64,000 nucleotides of DNA. Source: Planctomycetota bacterium. Lineage in GTDB: Bacteria; Planctomycetota; UBA1135; GCA-002686595. A model generated the notes under the pieces. That model had not been told where the DNA came from and made no database searches. It worked only from the letters and a program-made list of their open reading frames with translations. Where the stretch lies: contig PBIX01000007.1 of NCBI GenBank assembly GCA_002720975.1, forward strand, positions 58,251 to 122,250. The letters are read 5' to 3'. Positions 10,433 through 19,878 of the stretch are shown here, in pieces. Numbering within the stretch: position 1 is the first letter of the stretch; each line of letters starts with the position of its first letter. Both the position numbers and the translations under genes were made by a program.

Positions 10433-11469
10433 GCGCTCCAGCCCAGGTGCTGGTGACTGGAGCTTGTGGGTTCTTGGGCCGGGCAATCTGTCGGGAGCTG
10501 GATGCTCAGGGCTACCAGGTACACGCACTCCTCCGACCACAATCCGATCGGAGGGTTCTGGATGGAACCCGCTCCTGCCACGTGCCCGGGGATCTGATGG
10601 ACCCGGACAGTCTGCAGCGGGCCGCCCAGCATGTGTTTGAGGCGAGTTCCAGCACCTCCCCACCCTGGCTTGTTCACAATGCGGCAGCACTGGGCTATCG
10701 GCGCCGAGACGCGCTGCTTCAGCAAGCCGTCAATGTGGAGGGCACGGCGAACATCTTCTCGGCGGCGCGCCAAGCCCGCTTCACCCGCGCCCTCCACGTG
10801 AGCTCGGTCGTGACTGTGGGGCATGCAGAGAGAGAGGAGAGCGTCACCGAAGAGACGGGTTGGAATGCCGGAAGTCTCCCGGTGGAGTACGTTCAGACCA
10901 AGCGGGAGGCCGAGGAGAAGGTCTTGGCCCTCTCCAACGAACTGGATGTGCGAATCGTGAATCCTGGCGCGATTTTTGGCCCCGGTGGCGAGAAGGGGAA
11001 CACCTCCAAGCTCCTGATCGCATTGGCCCAAGGGAAGCTCGGTCCGGTTGTCCCCCCCGGAGGCATGAGTGTCGTGGGGGTTGAGGACACAGCCCGCGGA
11101 GTACGCCTGGCCTTGGAGCGTGGCCGGCGGGGGTCGCGGTACATCCTGACGGACGAGTTTCTGTGTACCCGCGACCTGTGCGAACGTGCGGTCGCGTGTA
11201 TGCGCCTGCGCGGTATCGCCGCGAAGGTACCGCTGCTGAGCGTACCGCGATCTCTGTGGCCTGCTGCCATCGCCGCGGCCCGGGTGATTGAGTGGTTTCA
11301 CGAACCCCGACTGACCACGTCTCGGGCCCTTCGCATGGTGCGCCCGGATTGGCGTGCCTCATCAGAACGAGCGCGCGAAGAGCTAGGGTGGCGACCTACT
11401 TCTTTCGACCGTGTCCTAGGTGAGACCCTCGATGATCTGGAGGCCCTGGGCCTCCTGGTCTCGAACTAG
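10429..11469 (+). CDS. NAD-dependent epimerase/dehydratase family protein (SDR, dihydroflavonol reductase-like)
   Basis: N-terminal VLVTGACGFLGRAICREL is a GxxGxxG Rossmann motif. YxxxK is present in YVQTKREAE. ATGA overlap with the kinase gene stop. Confidence 0.75.
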   Translation: MSAPAQVLVTGACGFLGRAICRELDAQGYQVHALLRPQSDRRVLDGTRSCHVPGDLMDPDSLQRAAQHVFEASSSTSPPWLVHNAAALGYRRRDALLQQAVNVEGTANIFSAARQARFTRALHVSSVVTVGHAEREESVTEETGWNAGSLPVEYVQTKREAEEKVLALSNELDVRIVNPGAIFGPGGEKGNTSKLLIALAQGKLGPVVPPGGMSVVGVEDTARGVRLALERGRRGSRYILTDEFLCTRDLCERAVACMRLRGIAAKVPLLSVPRSLWPAAIAAARVIEWFHEPRLTTSRALRMVRPDWRASSERAREELGWRPTSFDRVLGETLDDLEALGLLVSN

Positions 11470-11834
11470 GGCCGATCATCTCCATCGAATCCCCAGCGGC
11501 CCGCAATGCGTGCCCGGCGAACGGAGAGGATGTCGAGGACCCAATTCCACCATCCCAGATCCGGTATCACCTCTACTTCCTCGATCTGCATGTTGGCCAG
11601 GTTGGCGTCAGCCAGATTCTCCCGGGTGATCTGCATGGCCGACTTGGGCACATCAATCTTGAAGACCGTGATTGCAACGGCTGTGGCCTCAAAGGTGCCC
11701 GAGGTCTGAGTCGTGCGCTCAAAGTCGAGGGACGCGCAAGAGGCCAGGGCCCCTAGCAGGAGCGTGGGCAGAATCCTCGTCCAACGGGGTGCGGCGTGTG
11801 TGCGCGGTACTGTTCCAGGTGCGGTGCTGATCAT
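11466..11834 (-). CDS. Small lipoprotein of unknown function
   Basis: From ATG 11834 the product is MISTAPG...ILPTLLLGALASC/AS, which carries a lipobox. About 122 aa. Confidence 0.45.
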   Translation of the reverse strand: MISTAPGTVPRTHAAPRWTRILPTLLLGALASCASLDFERTTQTSGTFEATAVAITVFKIDVPKSAMQITRENLADANLANMQIEEVEVIPDLGWWNWVLDILSVRRARIAGRWGFDGDDRP

Positions 11835-11962
11835 GGTGTCCCAGTCTAGCACCGGGCTCCATGGCTCCCGCCAGCCCAATCAGCGGGAACTCTGCAGCCT
11901 GGACTCTTCAGGCTCATGGGTTGGTGCCATTCCGCCCTCATCCCCGCTATCCTCGCTCCTCC

Positions 11963-13186
11963 ATGGTGACCCCTGGCAGGCATACCGACTCAAGAGCCCG
12001 GATCGAGCAATTGGCCGCACACGCGAGCCAATTCGTGGAATGTTATGGTCCCGGACAGGCTCCGCGGCTCTTCTTCTCGCCCGGCCGTGTCAACCTGTTT
12101 GGTGGGCATCTTGACTACAACGGTGGTCCGGTGATGCCGACAGCCATCGATCGCGGCACCTTCATTGCGGCCCGATCGCGCTCTGACCGATTGCTGCGCA
12201 TGGCCTCGGCGTACGACCGGCAGGTTGTGGAAACCGACCTGGATCAGCTGCCCAGTGCACGTGTCAGCAAGTGGGTCGACTACCCGCTGGGCGTGGTGCT
12301 TGAGTTGACCACTCAGCTGGCAGAGTCTGGCTCAGCACTTCCCGGTGGTTTGGACATTCTCTATGGGGGCGACCTGCCCATTGGTTCGGGCCTCTCCTCT
12401 TCCGCTTCGATCTGCGTGGGTACGGCCGTGATGCTCGACTCACTATGGAGCTTGGGGCTCAGCAATCTGGATCGGGTGCGTGCAGCTCTGCGCGCGGAGC
12501 GTCATTTTGTGGGCGTGCAGTGTGGAATCATGGATCCCTACGCAATTGGATGTGCTCGGGCGGGGCACCTGCTCTGGCTGGATTGCAAGGACGAGAGCAT
12601 CGAGTATCTGCCCATCGATGGTGCTCAACTCTCGATCCTTGTCACGAATACGGGAGTGCAACGAGCCCTTGCGGCCAGTGAGTTCAACCGTCGGGTAGAC
12701 CAGTGCGCACAGGCTTTCGACATCCTGCGCTCCGCCTCTGTGGAGGCGACATGCCTACGGGATATTCCCTTGGAAGTCCTCGAATCCGAGCGGGGCTCTA
12801 TGGACCCGGTCCTGGCCAATCGAGCGGAGCACGTGATCCACGAAGTAAGGCGCACCTTCGAGGCCCGGGAGTTTCTATTGGCTGGGAACCCCGAGGGCAT
12901 GGGGGGGTGCATGACCCAGACCCATGAGTCCTTGCGCAGCCTCTACGAGGTGTCCTGCCCCGAACTGGACCTCCTGGTGGAAGCTGCAGCCACCTGTTCG
13001 GGAGCCTTCGGGGCGCGTCTGACCGGGGCAGGCTTCGGTGGTTGCACGGTGACTCTCGTGCGTAGGGGCGACGAGGATGAGGTCCAGGCAAGCCTTGAGG
13101 CGCGCTTTGAGGAGGAGTTCGGGCGATGCCCCCAGGTCGATGTGTTCGAGGGAGATCCCGGCCCGCGGGAAATCGACTGGGCCTGA
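11963..13186 (+). CDS. galK: Galactokinase
   Basis: Galactokinase signature GRVNLFGGHLDYNGG and GHMP motif GGDLPIGSGLSSSASI. The C-terminal TGAGFGGC motif is also present. Start taken at ATG 11963. Confidence 0.9.
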   Translation: MVTPGRHTDSRARIEQLAAHASQFVECYGPGQAPRLFFSPGRVNLFGGHLDYNGGPVMPTAIDRGTFIAARSRSDRLLRMASAYDRQVVETDLDQLPSARVSKWVDYPLGVVLELTTQLAESGSALPGGLDILYGGDLPIGSGLSSSASICVGTAVMLDSLWSLGLSNLDRVRAALRAERHFVGVQCGIMDPYAIGCARAGHLLWLDCKDESIEYLPIDGAQLSILVTNTGVQRALAASEFNRRVDQCAQAFDILRSASVEATCLRDIPLEVLESERGSMDPVLANRAEHVIHEVRRTFEAREFLLAGNPEGMGGCMTQTHESLRSLYEVSCPELDLLVEAAATCSGAFGARLTGAGFGGCTVTLVRRGDEDEVQASLEARFEEEFGRCPQVDVFEGDPGPREIDWA

Positions 13187-13263: not shown

Positions 13264-15204
13264 TCAGTTCCCTCGGGTCGAAGCCCCGTACTGGATGCGC
13301 TTGGCAGCTTCGAGCAGAGCGGCCCCAGCAGGCTCGGTTGAAATTTCACGGCTGAAGGCGTTCTCCAACAGATCCACAGCTTCTGCAGGTCGGCCGCCGA
13401 AGAGGTAATTCGCCGCCAGCACCAGGCGTGCATCGTCATCCAGGAAATGATCTTGGATGTAGAGTTCCAGAGTGGCGATCTGGCGATCGAACTCGATGGG
13501 ATCGGCGTAGAAACCGTGCTTGTCCACCACACTCATGGCGAGCTTGGAGTCCAGCTCAAAGGCGCGGCGCAGAGCATAGGCGGCGTAGTGGTAGTCACCC
13601 GTTGCGAACAGCGAATCAGCGAGGATGAGGTACAGGATCCCGTCCTGGGGGGAGAACTCCACGGCCTTGGCATAGAAGTGAACGGCGTCACCGAAGCGAC
13701 TCTCTTGGAAGGCCTGGTCGCCCAGCGTCAGGTAGTGATCTGCGGCGCGGTTGAGGCTGCCGCCCGCTGCAGGTACCGGTGTTCCACCGGCCCAGTCCTC
13801 GGCCACGACCACTTCGCCCTCGGCGATGGGGCCCTCAACGTAGACCTCTTCCTGGGGTTCTTCGTAGACGTAGACCACGTCGGCCTGAGGATCACTCTCC
13901 ACCGTCTGATAGATGACGGATGTGTAGGACGGGTAGAAGGGGCCGTACCAGTAGTAGCTCGGGCAGCAACCGGGTGACCAATAGCCGCCGCTGTACCAGT
14001 AGTAGTTCCACCAGGAGCCCCAGCAATAGGATGACCAGCCCCAGAGCCAGCCTCCCCACCAACAGCAGGAGTCGCCCCAGCCTCCATTACCCCAGTAGCA
14101 GTTGCTGTAGTTGCCTCCCTGGTAGCAGTAGCTGGAGTTGCTGCCGTTGCCAGAGGCTCCAGAGCCCGCCCGAACGGCGTTCGCGGCGACGGATTTCTGA
14201 TAGTTGGAGCGGGCGGTCGAGATACGCTCGGCGTTCTTGGCCGCGAAGGCTGCACGCGCCTTCTGGGCCCGCTGCGCGTCCCTCTCGGTCAGAGCGGCGC
14301 GAGCCTTGTCGGCTCGGCCCTGATCGCGTGTCGCGATGGAATCGCGCACGTTCGCGGCTCTCTCCGCATTGGTCAGGCCATTGTGGCGGCCGCTGGAGGG
14401 CCCGGACGCCGCGGGGAGGTCACTCGTGTCACGCAGACGTTGGCGTGCCACGTCCCGAGCCGTGGGGCGGTAGCGCTCGAGGATGTCATCCCGCGAAATA
14501 GTGCGTGCCCGGTACCCGTCCGGTGTGACGGTGGTCGGGCGGCTACTGGCGGTCCCTGATCTGGTGCGCAGGCTCTGGGTCAGATTAGTGGGGGGAGATT
14601 GCGTTCCGCGGTAGCGGTCGCGGGACGAAACCGTGGTGCCGGATGACGGCAAGGACGTACTGGACGACTGCGGGAAGCGCACCCGCTGCGGTACCCCTGC
14701 ACTGCTGAGGTCGATGACGTTCGAGCCAGCTGCGGGTCGTGACAGGTCGGTTGTTCCACTGCTGCTGCGCGCGCGCCAGCTGAGGTCTACGGAACCGGTG
14801 CTGGGGCGGACCGTGGGTGTACTGGTCGTGGGGCTCACGGTCGGCCTTGACATGATCGACGAGCTTCCCGTGTACGAGGAGCTTGAGCGAGTGGGCGTGG
14901 TCACCGAGCGTGTGGGCGTCGAGCGCGTGGGCGTCGAGCGTGTGGGTGTCGAGCGGGTGGGTGTCGAGCGGGTGGGTGTCGCGCGGGTGGGCGTCGAGCG
15001 GGTGGGAGTTTGGGTCGAGCGCGTAGGCGTGGACCGGACCGGAGTGGATCGCACGGGGGTGGATCGGACCGGATTCTGGCGGCTGGAGGAACCGGCCCGC
15101 ACCGGCGTGCTCTGGCCACGTTTGCGTTGGGCGCTGGCATTGTCAGCGGTGAACGCGAGAGAGAACGCAAGGGCCAGAAGGAGGAGGGGTCGTTGGCTCA
15201 ACAT
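13264..15204 (-). CDS. Secreted repeat protein: signal peptide, TPTRS pentapeptide repeats, S/T/R-rich region, Trp/Tyr/Gly/Cys-rich block, C-terminal TPR-like domain
   Basis: From ATG 15204 the product starts MLSQRPLLLLALAFSLAFTADNASA (signal peptide). About 12 TP(T/V)RS units follow. Then comes ...SSYCYQGGNYSNCYWGNGGWGDSCCWWGGWLWGWSSYCWGSWWNYYWYSGGYWSPGCCPSYYWYGPFYPSY.... The C-terminal 170 aa are TPR-like (HYLTLGDQAFQESRFGDAVHFYAKAVEFSPQDG...). Confidence 0.7.
   Translation of the reverse strand: MLSQRPLLLLALAFSLAFTADNASAQRKRGQSTPVRAGSSSRQNPVRSTPVRSTPVRSTPTRSTQTPTRSTPTRATPTRSTPTRSTPTRSTPTRSTPTRSVTTPTRSSSSYTGSSSIMSRPTVSPTTSTPTVRPSTGSVDLSWRARSSSGTTDLSRPAAGSNVIDLSSAGVPQRVRFPQSSSTSLPSSGTTVSSRDRYRGTQSPPTNLTQSLRTRSGTASSRPTTVTPDGYRARTISRDDILERYRPTARDVARQRLRDTSDLPAASGPSSGRHNGLTNAERAANVRDSIATRDQGRADKARAALTERDAQRAQKARAAFAAKNAERISTARSNYQKSVAANAVRAGSGASGNGSNSSYCYQGGNYSNCYWGNGGWGDSCCWWGGWLWGWSSYCWGSWWNYYWYSGGYWSPGCCPSYYWYGPFYPSYTSVIYQTVESDPQADVVYVYEEPQEEVYVEGPIAEGEVVVAEDWAGGTPVPAAGGSLNRAADHYLTLGDQAFQESRFGDAVHFYAKAVEFSPQDGILYLILADSLFATGDYHYAAYALRRAFELDSKLAMSVVDKHGFYADPIEFDRQIATLELYIQDHFLDDDARLVLAANYLFGGRPAEAVDLLENAFSREISTEPAGAALLEAAKRIQYGASTRGN
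14886..15075. repeat. 15-bp tandem repeat (about 12 units) inside the CDS, encoding TP(T/V)RS
   Basis: On the plus strand, gtcgagcg[n]gtggg[y] is iterated, for example gtcgagcgcgtgggc gtcgagcgtgtgggt gtcgagcgggtgggt. The flanking units are more degenerate. Confidence 0.85.
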
Positions 15205-15462
15205 GAGGGCTTTCTTTCTGGGGGAGTCCGTGGGGGCGGACAATGGAGGGGATGCCGCGGAGGGTCCGCGTGGGTTCGGACCCTGCAGATCGCAAGATTG
15301 GTGCCGAACTGGTCGGCGAGAAGCGAATCTGCCCCAAATGAGGCATGGCGTACCCAAGAACGTGGTTGGGAAGCCCGTCTTTTCCTTTCAGGGGAGGCCG
15401 CCGTCCCGAGAACTGTGCCCTCTGCGGGGTACACGCTCCCCTCTGAGAGGCCAGGATGGGGG

Positions 15463-16635
15463 CTAGTGTTCCCGGCTGGGGAGCGCGGAGACCCAGACCA
15501 ATTCGGCCCTGCGCGGGGTCGAGTGGGCGGGCTGCACCCTCAGAAACAGGGCCCGGGGAGTCCCCTCCGATGCGGCCCTCATCTCCTTCATGTCCAGAGG
15601 GGAGAGCGTGGGTGCGGGCAGGAATCGGCTGATGGCTGGCCCCCCTTCCAGGCCATTCCAGCCCGGGGCAGCGGGGCTCCCGTCACCATCTTCCAGTACC
15701 AACCAGATGGCCTCCGGCACGCCCGCTGAAGTCAATTCCACATGGGGAGAGGCGGAGAGCGCCTTGTCGCAGAGGGCCATCTGGCGCTCCGCCTCGGTGA
15801 TCGCCGCCGTCAGGGTTGTATTGGGGGGTAGGGCCTGCCGCTGGAAAACGAGGGGGCCAAGCTGAAAGGGAACACAACTCCGGACCGCTTGACCCTTGGT
15901 CCTCTCACGCTGGTCAGCTGGGATGAACCAGGCGTCCAGGTAGCGGGAGTCCAGATCGACTTCGAGCACTTCCTCCTCCCATACCAAAGCGCCGCGCAGG
16001 TAGACATCGAATGCAGCCGGTCGTGTGCGCCCCGCCTCCTCGGTCCAACCCACGGTTCGGAAGGACTCCCTCTCCTGGTCTTCCGCATCGAAGGCGTCCA
16101 TCCGGATCGGCAGGTGAGCACCTTCTCCTTCCAGTACTGCTTCCAGGTGCCCAAAACCAGCGACCTCTGTCCGCAGGCGGTTCTCTCCGGCAGAGGTCCA
16201 CTCAAAGCCGAGCGGCCATAGGAAGAGAGCGCGCCGTAATTCGAACTCCATGACGGCCGCAGCGGCGTGTACCCCTGAGAGCTCGCGGCTCTCCTTCTTC
16301 CCAGGTGGGATGGACCACAACTGATCACCAAAGCGATAGTTGATGGCGCGCTGGGCCGAACGGCCCCCGTCCGGGCGTAGCAGGGAGCGTGCGCGATCAG
16401 GGAACGCGAAGCTGAGTTCGAGCTGATGGGGTTGATCGGGATAGGAGATGAAAGTGATCCGCGAACGGTGACCGAGCCCCATCAGGTTGCCGATCTTTTG
16501 GCGTTCCTGAACTCCCAAGTTCGAATCGGAGGGAGTGTCGGTCAGCGGCGGAGGCTCCGGATCTCCTTGGGGGGGACCACAGGCCACAAAGGCCAGGAGC
16601 ATCGCCGTGCGGGTGGCGAAGAGTGGGACGGTCAT
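15463..16635 (-). CDS. Hypothetical lipoprotein
   Basis: 390-aa ORF with N-terminal MTVPLFATRTAMLLAFVAC/GPP (lipobox). No recognisable domain motif. Confidence 0.5.
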   Translation of the reverse strand: MTVPLFATRTAMLLAFVACGPPQGDPEPPPLTDTPSDSNLGVQERQKIGNLMGLGHRSRITFISYPDQPHQLELSFAFPDRARSLLRPDGGRSAQRAINYRFGDQLWSIPPGKKESRELSGVHAAAAVMEFELRRALFLWPLGFEWTSAGENRLRTEVAGFGHLEAVLEGEGAHLPIRMDAFDAEDQERESFRTVGWTEEAGRTRPAAFDVYLRGALVWEEEVLEVDLDSRYLDAWFIPADQRERTKGQAVRSCVPFQLGPLVFQRQALPPNTTLTAAITEAERQMALCDKALSASPHVELTSAGVPEAIWLVLEDGDGSPAAPGWNGLEGGPAISRFLPAPTLSPLDMKEMRAASEGTPRALFLRVQPAHSTPRRAELVWVSALPSREH

Positions 16636-16695: not shown

Positions 16696-17637
16696 TCAGG
16701 GCAGGCGATGGGCCCATTGGACCCACTCCTCGTGCGTGGGATAATTGCGTCCCGAGAGGCGCTGCAGATCCCGTAGCACGGCACGGTTCACAGTATCGTT
16801 CACCTTGCCGAGGGAGGCTGTCAGGGCGCGGGCGCAATTGCCCCGGGAGCGGACTTCGTGCTTGCCGAGGTACGCTATCGCGCGGCTGGCAGCCATGGCC
16901 GTCGAGTCCAGATCGTCTTCGTAGAGCTGCAGGGCCAGAGCGCCGATGGAATCCACGTCCCGCTCAAAGGCGAGGATCAGGGCAGACTTGGTGCGTACGT
17001 AGGCCGCATCGTCGTGTAGTCCGGCGCGCGCGGCCTCCACGACTTCAGGGATCGTGGGGGAGCCCACTTGCAGGCACTCGAGCAGGGCCAGGGATGCGTT
17101 GCCACGAATCTGCTCGCTGGATCCGAACCGCATCTGGTGCACAATGCCCTGGAGGGGTGTCGTCGGCTCGCCGAGAACCGACAGGCCCACGAGGGCGTTG
17201 TTGACCACCTCCTGATCGGGATCGGCGAGGGCGTTGAGAAGTGGGCTCAGTGCCCGGTCGGAGCTCGTGAATCCCAAGGCTGTTGCGGCAACCCGGCGGT
17301 TGTAGGGCGGGCCGGACTCCAGTTGCTCGACGAGCAGATCGAACAGCTTGAGTGAGCGGCTGCGGATGGCGTCCTCGAGCCGGCTCAGGGTGCGCCGGTC
17401 CCGATCCTGGTTGCCTGTAAGAAAGCTGTGGTTCCACTGTTGGATGGAGCGGTCGAGGGTCGTGATGTACGTCCCAACGGAGGACTGCTCGCGGATGGCC
17501 CCGGGGTTGTAGACCGACACCTTCAGGCGCTCGCGCTCGGCCGCCAGCCCCTTGCTCTCCTTGGGTGCGGCGCAGGATGTAGCGATGGCCAGAGCGAGGA
17601 GGAGGGTCAGTGGGGTTCGATGTATGGGAGGCGACAT
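16696..17637 (-). CDS. HEAT-repeat lipoprotein
   Basis: Lipobox in LLLALAIATSC/AAP. Repeated helical units of HEAT/PBS-lyase type are present (RRVAATALGFTSSDRALSPLLNALADPDQEVVNNALVGLSVLG; RGNASLALLE...; DAAYVRTKSALILA). Confidence 0.6.
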   Translation of the reverse strand: MSPPIHRTPLTLLLALAIATSCAAPKESKGLAAERERLKVSVYNPGAIREQSSVGTYITTLDRSIQQWNHSFLTGNQDRDRRTLSRLEDAIRSRSLKLFDLLVEQLESGPPYNRRVAATALGFTSSDRALSPLLNALADPDQEVVNNALVGLSVLGEPTTPLQGIVHQMRFGSSEQIRGNASLALLECLQVGSPTIPEVVEAARAGLHDDAAYVRTKSALILAFERDVDSIGALALQLYEDDLDSTAMAASRAIAYLGKHEVRSRGNCARALTASLGKVNDTVNRAVLRDLQRLSGRNYPTHEEWVQWAHRLP

Positions 17638-18813: not shown

Positions 18814-18858
18814 ACCTCTTGTGCTAGCACACTATTCACTTTGAGCGGGTTATCGACC

Positions 18859-19878
18859 ATGTGCACCACTTCCATCCTCAAGACCATGACGATCACCGGA
18901 TGGCTGGTTGTAGGAGCCGTTGCAGGCATCTCCTCCACGGCGGACCGGGGTTCAGATGGAAGCCTGCTCGTGGAGCGGGCAGGGGGACTGGCTTTCACGA
19001 TCCCCGAAGCGGAGACCCTGTCCTTCGAGGTCATCGTGGACATCCCGCTTGTGGGTGCGACCGGTTTGGGCTCATTTGAGTTGGTTTCCGGCACGGAGGC
19101 CCATCAGGCGTCGGTATTTGAGCCCACGGAGGGCGTAGGGGGGCAGGCTCCCCGCGCAGGGTGGATCAGGGGAAGCGCCAGCGGTGCCTGTTTGAACTAC
19201 GTGCTCAAGCACGAGATCGACCTGCGTGTACTTCCGCAGGAATGGCCACGAGTGATCTACCGTGACACCCAGAGCGGCACCGAAAATCGGCGGCGTGAGC
19301 TGATGTATGGGTTGCGGAACGGACAGCCGACTTCGCTCTACAGGCGGGACGGGCATTGCGTGAGCGAGACCTGCGAACGTCCCGAGCACCGGGTCGAGAA
19401 AACCTGGCTGCGAAAGGAGCATCACTGCAACAAGTGCAAGCGCGGGGCTCATCGCGACTGGCGCAAGCCCACAGTGCAGGAGATCCCGGTGGACAGCGTC
19501 GACATGTTGAGCGCTGTGTTCCTTGCGCGCAGCATGGTGCAGAACGATCTGGGAGAAGTGAAGTTCCCGATGTTGGACAAGGACCGTTGGTGGGACGTCA
19601 CCTTGACCCTCGGAGAGAGCCGGCGCATCGTCACCAAGGCCGGCACCTTTGAGTGTCGCGCTGTCAAGATGACCCCCGTTCTGCCCTCGGGCAAGAGCGA
19701 GAAGTTCAAGGGGCTGTTCGGCATTCACGGCTCCCTCGCCATCTGGCTGGAGAAAGGGACGGGGGTGCCCGTCTCCATCGAGGGCGTCCTGCCCGCCGGC
19801 CCCTTGGACGTGGGCATCAACCTGCGCTTGAAGGGCTTTCGGGGTACGCCTGAGGAGTTCGCTTCCGTGAGCCGCTAG
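18859..19878 (+). CDS. Hypothetical secreted protein, possibly DUF3108-like
   Basis: N-terminal hydrophobic segment (MTITGWLVVGAVAGISS), then ETLSFEVIVDIPLVGATGLGSFEL. The C-terminal GSLAIWLEKGTGVPVSIEG resembles DUF3108 from memory only. The start is ambiguous (18841 TTG, 18859 ATG or 18886 ATG). Confidence 0.4.
   Translation: MCTTSILKTMTITGWLVVGAVAGISSTADRGSDGSLLVERAGGLAFTIPEAETLSFEVIVDIPLVGATGLGSFELVSGTEAHQASVFEPTEGVGGQAPRAGWIRGSASGACLNYVLKHEIDLRVLPQEWPRVIYRDTQSGTENRRRELMYGLRNGQPTSLYRRDGHCVSETCERPEHRVEKTWLRKEHHCNKCKRGAHRDWRKPTVQEIPVDSVDMLSAVFLARSMVQNDLGEVKFPMLDKDRWWDVTLTLGESRRIVTKAGTFECRAVKMTPVLPSGKSEKFKGLFGIHGSLAIWLEKGTGVPVSIEGVLPAGPLDVGINLRLKGFRGTPEEFASVSR

Follow-up and report, generated by a model that had tools for sequence, protein, structure and literature searches.

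A compositionally conserved Trp/Tyr-rich block in a predicted exported TPR protein family of Planctomycetota

The locus described here lies in a 64,000-nucleotide stretch of Planctomycetota contig PBIX01000007.1 (hereafter the window, meaning the whole stretch that was analysed) and encodes on its minus strand a predicted exported protein with a tetratricopeptide repeat (TPR) domain. An earlier note, made from the letters and a list of their open reading frames (ORFs), had drawn attention to a 77-residue block of this protein in which Trp, Tyr, Gly and Cys are massed, and the locus raises the question of what such a block is, whether it occurs elsewhere, and what it might do for the domain to which it is fused. 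The protein was found to be modular, with a signal peptide, a basic region, a helix, the aromatic block, an acidic linker and the TPR domain following one another in this order (Table 1). Across related species the block is conserved in composition, charge and position, and neither its residue order nor its Cys pattern is conserved. The reading put forward here, tentatively, is that the block is a cohesive aromatic low-complexity "sticker" carried by an envelope TPR scaffold, which could drive self-association while the TPR domain docks a partner.

Coding status, composition and conservation of the block

Minus-strand translation of 13906-14136 returned an exact match to the peptide quoted in the earlier note, and a recount gave precisely its 13 Trp, 15 Tyr, 14 Gly and 7 Cys. 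The maximal ORF in this frame (13264..15357, minus strand) has 697 codons and opens with TTG; the N-termini of relatives place the start at the ATG at 15204, so the reading frame of the note is real but the protein has 646 aa. Compared with two close relatives (~90% protein identity), the ratio of nonsynonymous to synonymous substitution rates (dN/dS) was 0.15 in the block and 0.05-0.08 in the TPR domain, the protein regions together spanning 0.05-0.15, and the GC content at third codon positions (GC3) of the block was 0.82 in the coding frame. Since the block combines this dN/dS with this GC3, the frame is coding: the minus-strand frame is translated, and the gene is real and under purifying selection. 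It is present as a single copy, a search for paralogues in its own 3.58-Mb genome having found none. A GC-rich genome does yield many long spurious ORFs on both strands, and on that ground the frame might be supposed to be untranslated, or the block to be a recent, functionless product of frameshift or repeat expansion. Such an artefact is effectively excluded by the selection, the GC3 and the conservation in relatives, of which one is encoded in each of 139 species of the genome collection and one copy in each of 13 sampled genomes of the same family (13/13); in addition, no tandem repeat was found in the block DNA.

The composition is extreme. At the Trp frequency of the genome, the binomial probability of at least 13 Trp in 77 residues is ~1e-9. 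When all six-frame ORFs of 100 aa or more (16,397) were compared, the block was the most aromatic stretch of the genome, with 28 Trp plus Tyr per 77 residues as against 16 in the next best window, and the next-best windows listed resemble GC-rich off-frame ORFs. A chance origin of the Trp content is thus excluded.

The block belongs to a family. A word-indexed search returned 285 homologs, and in all 120 matches listed the TPR domain has a stretch rich in Trp, Tyr and Cys ahead of it; the named sources are Planctomycetota metagenome-assembled genomes and Saltatorellus ferox Poly30 (Poly30_17420). The 139 species with a relative, found in a scan of one genome per species, are virtually all Planctomycetota. 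Exactly one copy occurs in all 13 genomes of the window's GTDB family among 400 genomes sampled across the phylum, and this family includes the cultured S. ferox Poly30. When the TPR domain alone was used as the query, all eight genomes of two sister families matched (8/8), as did 114 of 401 genomes at E<=1e-6.

The call of the earlier note to look for the block in orthologs was answered positively: it is present in 85/85 species-level relatives for which upstream sequence was available. Across these species its median length is 79 aa, with 16.6% Trp, 16.8% Tyr, 14.1% Gly, 11.4% Ser, 6.8% Pro, 5.9% Cys and 5.7% Asn, and charged residues make up 4.2%. Relatives at 36-42% TPR identity retain the signal peptide, the long basic P/S/T/R region, the aromatic block and the TPR domain. 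Of 40 relatives more distant still (26-37% identity), 26 show a stretch with 20 or more W/Y/F per 60 residues that starts 76-197 residues upstream of the TPR match. The blocks of these remote relatives are often rich in Tyr, Phe and His rather than Trp, and the layout persists; the block of the window protein thus represents a phylum-wide module in its Trp-rich form. The oddity seen in the earlier note is indeed unusual in composition, but it is not alone.

Conservation of order is another matter. The blocks of nearer relatives align in their C-terminal half as W..P.YC.GYWW.SYWY.GGYW..G..P.YYWYGPF.P. In pairs with less than 65% TPR identity, block alignments score little above shuffles of matched composition (median z 1.4-1.8), although such pairs keep 30-65% identity in their TPR domains. 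No confident fold was predicted for the block, which received a predicted local distance difference test (pLDDT) score of 39-59 when a 411-aa piece of the protein was modelled with AlphaFold2 on a 114-sequence alignment. The aromatics within it show no clustering and no period, either of 2 or of 3.6 residues, with observed/expected co-occurrence of 0.79-1.11 over lags 1-10. In keeping composition without order, in its few charges (4%) and in the disorder that its low pLDDT (39-59) predicts, the block has properties by which prion-like and "stickers-and-spacers" segments are recognised.

The Cys residues were considered separately. The seven Cys of the block include two CC pairs and are the only ones of the mature protein, and the linker plus TPR domain is Cys-free in 72 of the 85 relatives. 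In many relatives (P0007-P0024 and others) a His/Asp-rich run (e.g. DHHHHHFYD or DDGHHDGHHDD), absent from the window protein, stands directly upstream of the block; it may serve in metal binding or in a response to pH. Together, the confinement of the Cys to the block and the His/Asp-rich runs are the case for a small Cys-stabilised fold, or for a metal or redox cluster of Cys, Trp and Tyr (a disulfide knot, a quinone-type cross-link or a metal site); of these, the earlier note had listed the redox or metal-binding Cys cluster. This is very improbable. The number of Cys per block ranges from 1 to 9 across the 85 species, with 48 even and 37 odd and hence no bias towards even numbers; Cys columns vary even among relatives with 50-90% TPR identity, so that the spacing whose conservation the note had proposed to check is not fixed; two of the relatives listed (P0012 and P0120) have no Cys at all in their densest 60-residue window; the pLDDT of the block is low; and neither a known motif such as CxxCH nor a Pfam match was found. 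The disulfide-knot idea was rejected on the variation of Cys position and number and the lack of parity bias.

Known families were searched with the block plus linker. No match was obtained in Pfam at E<=10 or with phmmer against PDB sequences at E<=10, and NCBIfam gave no match to the block and only sub-threshold TPR matches to the whole protein. HMMER searching of 1.84 billion representative proteins gave 16 matches, of which 15 belong to the same family and the sixteenth (P0122) is spurious, an unrelated repeat protein aligned to the acidic linker; the block therefore occurs in no other protein context at detectable similarity. A Foldseek search of the PDB with the protein model returned TPR structures alone. 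The failure of the earlier note to match the composition to any domain family therefore extends to all of these collections outside the family itself. Two groups of superficially similar domains were discarded: hevein/CBM18, CBM1 and other disulfide-knotted glycan-binding mini-domains, on the variable (1-9), unaligned Cys and the empty Pfam search at E<=10, and the YTV repeat proteins of Planctomycetes, which constitute a Pfam family, and no Pfam family matches the block plus linker at that threshold. In the literature searched, which included the Saltatorellus papers, no description was found of this protein family or of Poly30_17420, nor of a compositionally conserved aromatic low-complexity module in an exported bacterial protein.

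Candidate roles of the block in the cell envelope

Of the roles suggested in the earlier note, two proved viable, the aromatic sticker as first choice and membrane-interface insertion as second; glycan binding was left without positive evidence, and the Cys cluster without support.

Briefly, the proposed mechanism is as follows. The protein would be exported by the Sec system and cleaved by signal peptidase I, leaving a chain built like a block copolymer: a basic disordered region, a helix, a near-uncharged module of ~37% aromatic residues with Gly, Ser, Asn, Pro and Cys between them, an acidic linker, and a four-repeat TPR domain. Pi-pi and hydrophobic contacts among blocks would drive self-association, giving oligomers or else a gel-like assembly, located in the periplasm or on an envelope surface. 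Cation-pi contacts between the block and the Arg-rich region would possibly contribute, and occasional intermolecular disulfides may add cohesion. The TPR domain would dock a conserved partner peptide. Four points of this scheme are inferred: that the protein reaches the periplasm, that the block is disordered, that the protein self-associates, and what kind of ligand the TPR domain binds. The flanking charge pattern that the scheme employs is conserved in 40 full-length members, in which the basic region has a net charge of +13 to +83 and the acidic linker of -3 to -13.

Several observations weigh against a cohesive sticker. The aromatic count of the block shows no co-variation with either the Arg count or the net charge of the basic region (Spearman rho ~0, n=40). 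The aromatic density of ~37%, gathered into one patch, is far outside the known prion-like range of moderate and evenly spread aromatics, and a patch of this density points less to a reversible condensate than to collapse, aggregation, or burial inside a membrane or a binding partner. The positional motif YWW.SYWY.GGYW...P.YYWYGPF.P of nearer relatives could indicate a specific structure or binding site. Finally, a neighbouring gene product of predicted LolA/LolB fold and a lipoprotein-anchored variant of the TPR domain (both described below) fit a membrane anchor at least as well.

That alternative, judged somewhat unlikely, is that the block acts as a lipid-free anchor, an uncharged Trp/Tyr patch lying in the interfacial zone and holding the TPR domain at the membrane. 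The leaflet would be the inner one of the outer membrane or the outer one of the inner membrane, and the LolA/LolB-fold lipoprotein may shield the block and hand it over. Interfacial partitioning of the kind expected of in-plane membrane anchors is favourable, the Wimley-White interfacial sum of the blocks averaging -31.6 kcal/mol (range -16.7 to -46.5; -0.40 per residue), and the nearly charge-free block stands beside a basic region able to bind anionic head groups. In membrane proteins, the aromatic belt at the interface has Trp as its key residue (PMC5091009). Two putative lipoproteins are encoded upstream, one with a predicted LolA/LolB-type hydrophobic-cavity fold, and are syntenic in 44-46 of 49 loci; and in one remote planctomycete family (L118, L125) the protein bearing this TPR domain is a lipoprotein with a lipobox (LFLAGC / LLFAGC) and lacks the aromatic block. 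On the other side, the block lacks the amphipathic periodicity of in-plane anchors, whether helical (3.6-residue) or beta (2-residue); it is rich in Gly, Ser, Asn and Pro and, at ~80 residues, much exceeds the known in-plane anchors in length; no LolB-fold partner was detectable outside the window's GTDB family, and no neighbour is conserved phylum-wide; and the lipoprotein variant belongs to a single lineage and has a different middle domain as well.

A bolder combination of the two ideas, speculative and on balance unlikely, would make the block a protein-only substitute for a lipid anchor, whose ~80-residue Trp/Tyr patch the LolA/LolB-fold lipoprotein would shield in its hydrophobic cavity and deliver either to a membrane leaflet or to a cohesive aromatic assembly (a lineage-specific "aromatic-anchor sorting" of an envelope TPR scaffold in the shapeshifting Saltatorellus clade), with Planctomycetota broadly building a cohesive extracytoplasmic matrix from such proteins. 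The link between the LolB-fold lipoprotein and the aromatic block is one of synteny only.

Aromatic residues are also the usual means by which carbohydrate-binding modules (CBMs) bind sugars, and the block could in principle be a platform on which Trp and Tyr stack on sugar rings through CH-pi contacts and so tether the TPR scaffold to peptidoglycan or another polysaccharide. The predicted export of the protein would bring it to the right place, as bacteria of the Saltatorellus clade possess peptidoglycan, despite which members of the clade change shape (bioRxiv 10.1101/817700); the only local hint is the convergent galactokinase gene with nearby glycosyltransferase and epimerase genes. The idea is nevertheless improbable. 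No CBM, LysM, SPOR, hevein or other glycan-related family was matched even at E<=10, the AlphaFold model contains no folded platform, the order of the block is not conserved as it is in true CBMs, and galK, being convergent, forms no operon with the gene.

Flanking regions, the TPR domain and neighbouring genes

Coordinates of the protein regions and neighbouring genes are collected in Table 1. The N-terminus is laid out n-h-c like a Sec signal peptide, and small residues occupy positions -3 and -1 (MLSQRP-LLLLALAFSLAF-TADNASA followed by Q), as expected for export and cleavage by signal peptidase I; basic residues straight after a predicted cleavage site are unusual. A pattern search of 40 full-length members found the same n-h-c arrangement ending small-x-small followed by Q[RKGS], mostly AxA followed by QR. 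The signal peptide claimed in the earlier note is accordingly retained as a cleavable-looking Sec type with an N-terminal pattern common to relatives.

Table 1. Regions of the aromatic-block protein and genes of its neighbourhood (window coordinates).
Feature	Position	Strand	Description	Basis
Gene for predicted exported aromatic-block TPR protein	13264..15204	-	646 aa from ATG at 15204	ORF list
Predicted Sec-type signal peptide	15130..15204	-	residues 1-25, MLSQRPLLLLALAFSLAFTADNASA, followed by QRKRG	AxA, then Q, cleavage pattern read from sequence
Basic S/T/P/R-rich low-complexity region	14371..15129	-	residues 26-278 (253 aa); S52 T47 R39 P28, net +29	composition
Predicted long Ala/Arg-rich alpha-helix	14170..14370	-	residues 279-345 (67 aa)	AlphaFold2, pLDDT 84-95 over most of length
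Trp/Tyr/Gly/Cys block	13906..14136	-	residues 357-433; W13 Y15 G14 S12 C7, one charged residue	translation, composition
Acidic linker	13765..13905	-	residues 434-480 (47 aa), net -12; strand-like V-x-Y-V-E motifs	composition
TPR domain	13285..13764	-	residues 481-640, ~four helical hairpins; most conserved part of protein	pLDDT 92-98
Small putative lipoprotein	11466-11879	-	137-aa ORF, lipobox LGALASC	no family match
Galactokinase gene, convergent	11861..13186	+		Pfam GalKase_gal_bdg plus GHMP kinase domains
390-aa putative lipoprotein	15463..16635	-	lipobox AFVAC; N-terminal predicted LolA/LolB-superfamily fold plus C-terminal alpha/beta domain	AlphaFold2, Foldseek
313-aa HEAT-repeat putative lipoprotein	16696..17637	-	lipobox IATSC	Pfam HEAT_2 E 1.1e-11
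DUF3108 protein near cluster	18841-19878	+	present in 25/49 related loci

The S/T/R-rich region that follows does look disordered, as the earlier note had supposed. In the 40 full-length relatives the segment between signal peptide and block measures 274-481 aa with 14% Arg. The basic region of the window protein contains a 15-nt tandem repeat at 14905-15006 (6.8 copies, 91% matches; second coordinates 15029-15073), which encodes TPTRS pentapeptides and whose repeat number probably varies between strains. Within the last ~40 residues of the region lies a conserved island, DILERYR (residues ~242-248, window 14460-14480 region), in surroundings that are variable; the island, of the form [ILV][ILV].RY[RK], precedes the TPR domain by ~270 residues, and among 80 relatives a strict pattern recovered it in 36. 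It is a candidate linear motif, perhaps the ligand of the TPR domain. The long helix corresponds to residues 44-110 of the modelled piece. The acidic linker, which in relatives is kept as VIYVE..EP..EVIYVE..GE, has a pLDDT below 50.

The TPR-like domain of the earlier note is a genuine TPR fold by phmmer against the PDB, AlphaFold2 and Foldseek. TPR arrays consist of tandem 34-residue helix-turn-helix units with a W4-L7-G8-Y11-A20-F24-A27-P32 pattern, wound into a right-handed superhelix. In the model this region forms paired helices at pLDDT 92-98. The phmmer search returned consensus TPR proteins down to E 7.9e-36, and the Foldseek matches were CTPR, SGT/Sgt2, CHIP, PP5, MamA and PilF, with a probability of 1.00 for CTPR, SGT, PP5 and MamA. 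Only TPR families match the whole protein in Pfam at E<=1, with individual models scoring 11-18 bits. The assignment to the TPR superfamily is solid, and since these scores lie below the Pfam gathering cut-offs the domain is placed there as a divergent subfamily. The named families PrsT, LcrH/SycD, MamA, HemY, LapB and PilW were tried and rejected, scoring 9-17 bits against NCBIfam cut-offs of 105-900 bits. All 17 invariant columns of the family alignment fall inside the TPR domain. By the probable mapping of repeat positions, Asp is invariant at position 9 of both TPR1 and TPR2, and Phe at position 12 is invariant in TPR1 and at least 90% conserved in TPR2; this Asp and Phe in the groove suggest a basic or aromatic ligand.

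Synteny was surveyed in 49 related loci with full flanks. The ~390-aa lipoprotein gene is on the same strand upstream in 44 of them and the HEAT-repeat lipoprotein gene in 46; exported or lipidated HEAT-repeat proteins are uncommon. Downstream, the galactokinase gene is convergent in 46/49, with the same arrangement in S. ferox Poly30, and is regarded as a synteny marker, no functional partnership being proposed; the small lipoprotein follows galK in 46/49. Around 20 remote relatives no neighbouring gene is conserved phylum-wide, and the cluster is thus a feature at the level of the GTDB family. The aromatic-block gene lies outside any tol-pal, pilus, Bam or magnetosome cluster.

The 390-aa lipoprotein was modelled by AlphaFold2 at a mean pLDDT of 85, and the N-terminal domain of the model has the open antiparallel beta-barrel with helical plug that characterises the LolA/LolB fold. 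At E<=1e-3 Foldseek matched 53 PDB entries; 50 of them were listed, and almost all of these are LolA, LolB or LolA-superfamily/ependymin structures (3bk5, E 1.6e-7; LolB 1iwm, TM-score 0.66, root mean square deviation 3.9). By sequence the protein matches no Pfam or NCBIfam family, and a profile search of PDB sequences was empty. It was detectable in 12 of 13 genomes of the same family; in the 11 of these other than the window's own it lies on the contig of the aromatic-block gene, ~1.7-2.8 kb apart. Outside the window's GTDB family the LolB-fold lipoprotein was not detectable, and the window's own genome has no match to Pfam LolA (PF03548). In the Saltatorellus clade this protein could serve, in its own right, as a divergent factor for lipoprotein sorting. 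It resembles LolA and LolB in its predicted open beta-barrel with internal helix, and LolB in its lipobox, but differs from them in the lack of sequence similarity and in an extra C-terminal alpha/beta domain.

Relation to known systems and significance

As a predicted exported protein with a short folded TPR array, the window protein resembles the envelope TPR scaffolds CpoB/YbgF, PilF/PilW, MamA, BamD and NlpI, and MamA and PilF are among its Foldseek matches. CpoB has a long helix before its C-terminal TPR domain, and a long helix likewise stands ahead of the C-terminal TPR domain here. The NCBIfam scores to all of these scaffolds are, however, far under cut-off, and none of them is known to have the ~380-residue Arg-rich disordered region or the aromatic low-complexity block.

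For the sticker reading, two analogies of mechanism were considered, neither of which implies homology. FUS carries about one Tyr per 8-10 residues over ~200 residues. In the FUS family, the prion-like and Arg-Gly-Gly (RGG) segments offer the same combination of a near-uncharged aromatic segment with Gly, Ser and Asn spacers and an Arg-rich disordered region in one chain, and the window family, too, keeps composition rather than order. Cooperative Tyr-Arg cation-pi contacts contribute to the phase separation of FUS (PMC5927716). The window protein differs in being bacterial and predicted to be extracytoplasmic, in its ~37% aromatic content, its richness in Trp, its single ~80-residue patch and its Cys, and in that aromatic and Arg content do not co-vary across its family. 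The nearest compositional analogue named is mfp-3, a Gly/Tyr(Dopa)/Trp/Asn/Arg-rich underwater adhesive of mussels, which is likewise secreted and disordered, in which Tyr and Trp abound close to cationic residues, and in which Trp-driven hydrophobic and cation-pi contacts give cohesion and adhesion (PMC12721214). It is, however, a Dopa-modified animal protein of ~6 kDa with no folded domain, and the window block, which has no homology to it, sits as one module inside a TPR protein of 646 aa. The likeness to hevein/CBM18, fungal CBM1 and the Cys/Pro-rich planctomycetal YTV wall proteins is a superficial one of composition (Cys, Gly, Tyr, Trp, Asn and Ser, with CC pairs); Cys spacing is fixed in those domains and variable here.

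Aromatic low-complexity modules with conserved composition are well studied in eukaryotic condensates and in animal adhesives. The module described here is conserved in composition across a bacterial phylum, reaches ~17% Trp, and has a well-behaved TPR domain as its fusion partner. Should the block prove to be a generic sticky spacer and nothing more, a Planctomycetota protein family that lacked annotation would still have been cleanly defined. For Trp-rich cohesive peptides the block also offers a natural design, and the presence of the family in the culturable S. ferox makes the organisation of a bacterial envelope by an aromatic "sticker" or a lipid-free anchor directly testable.

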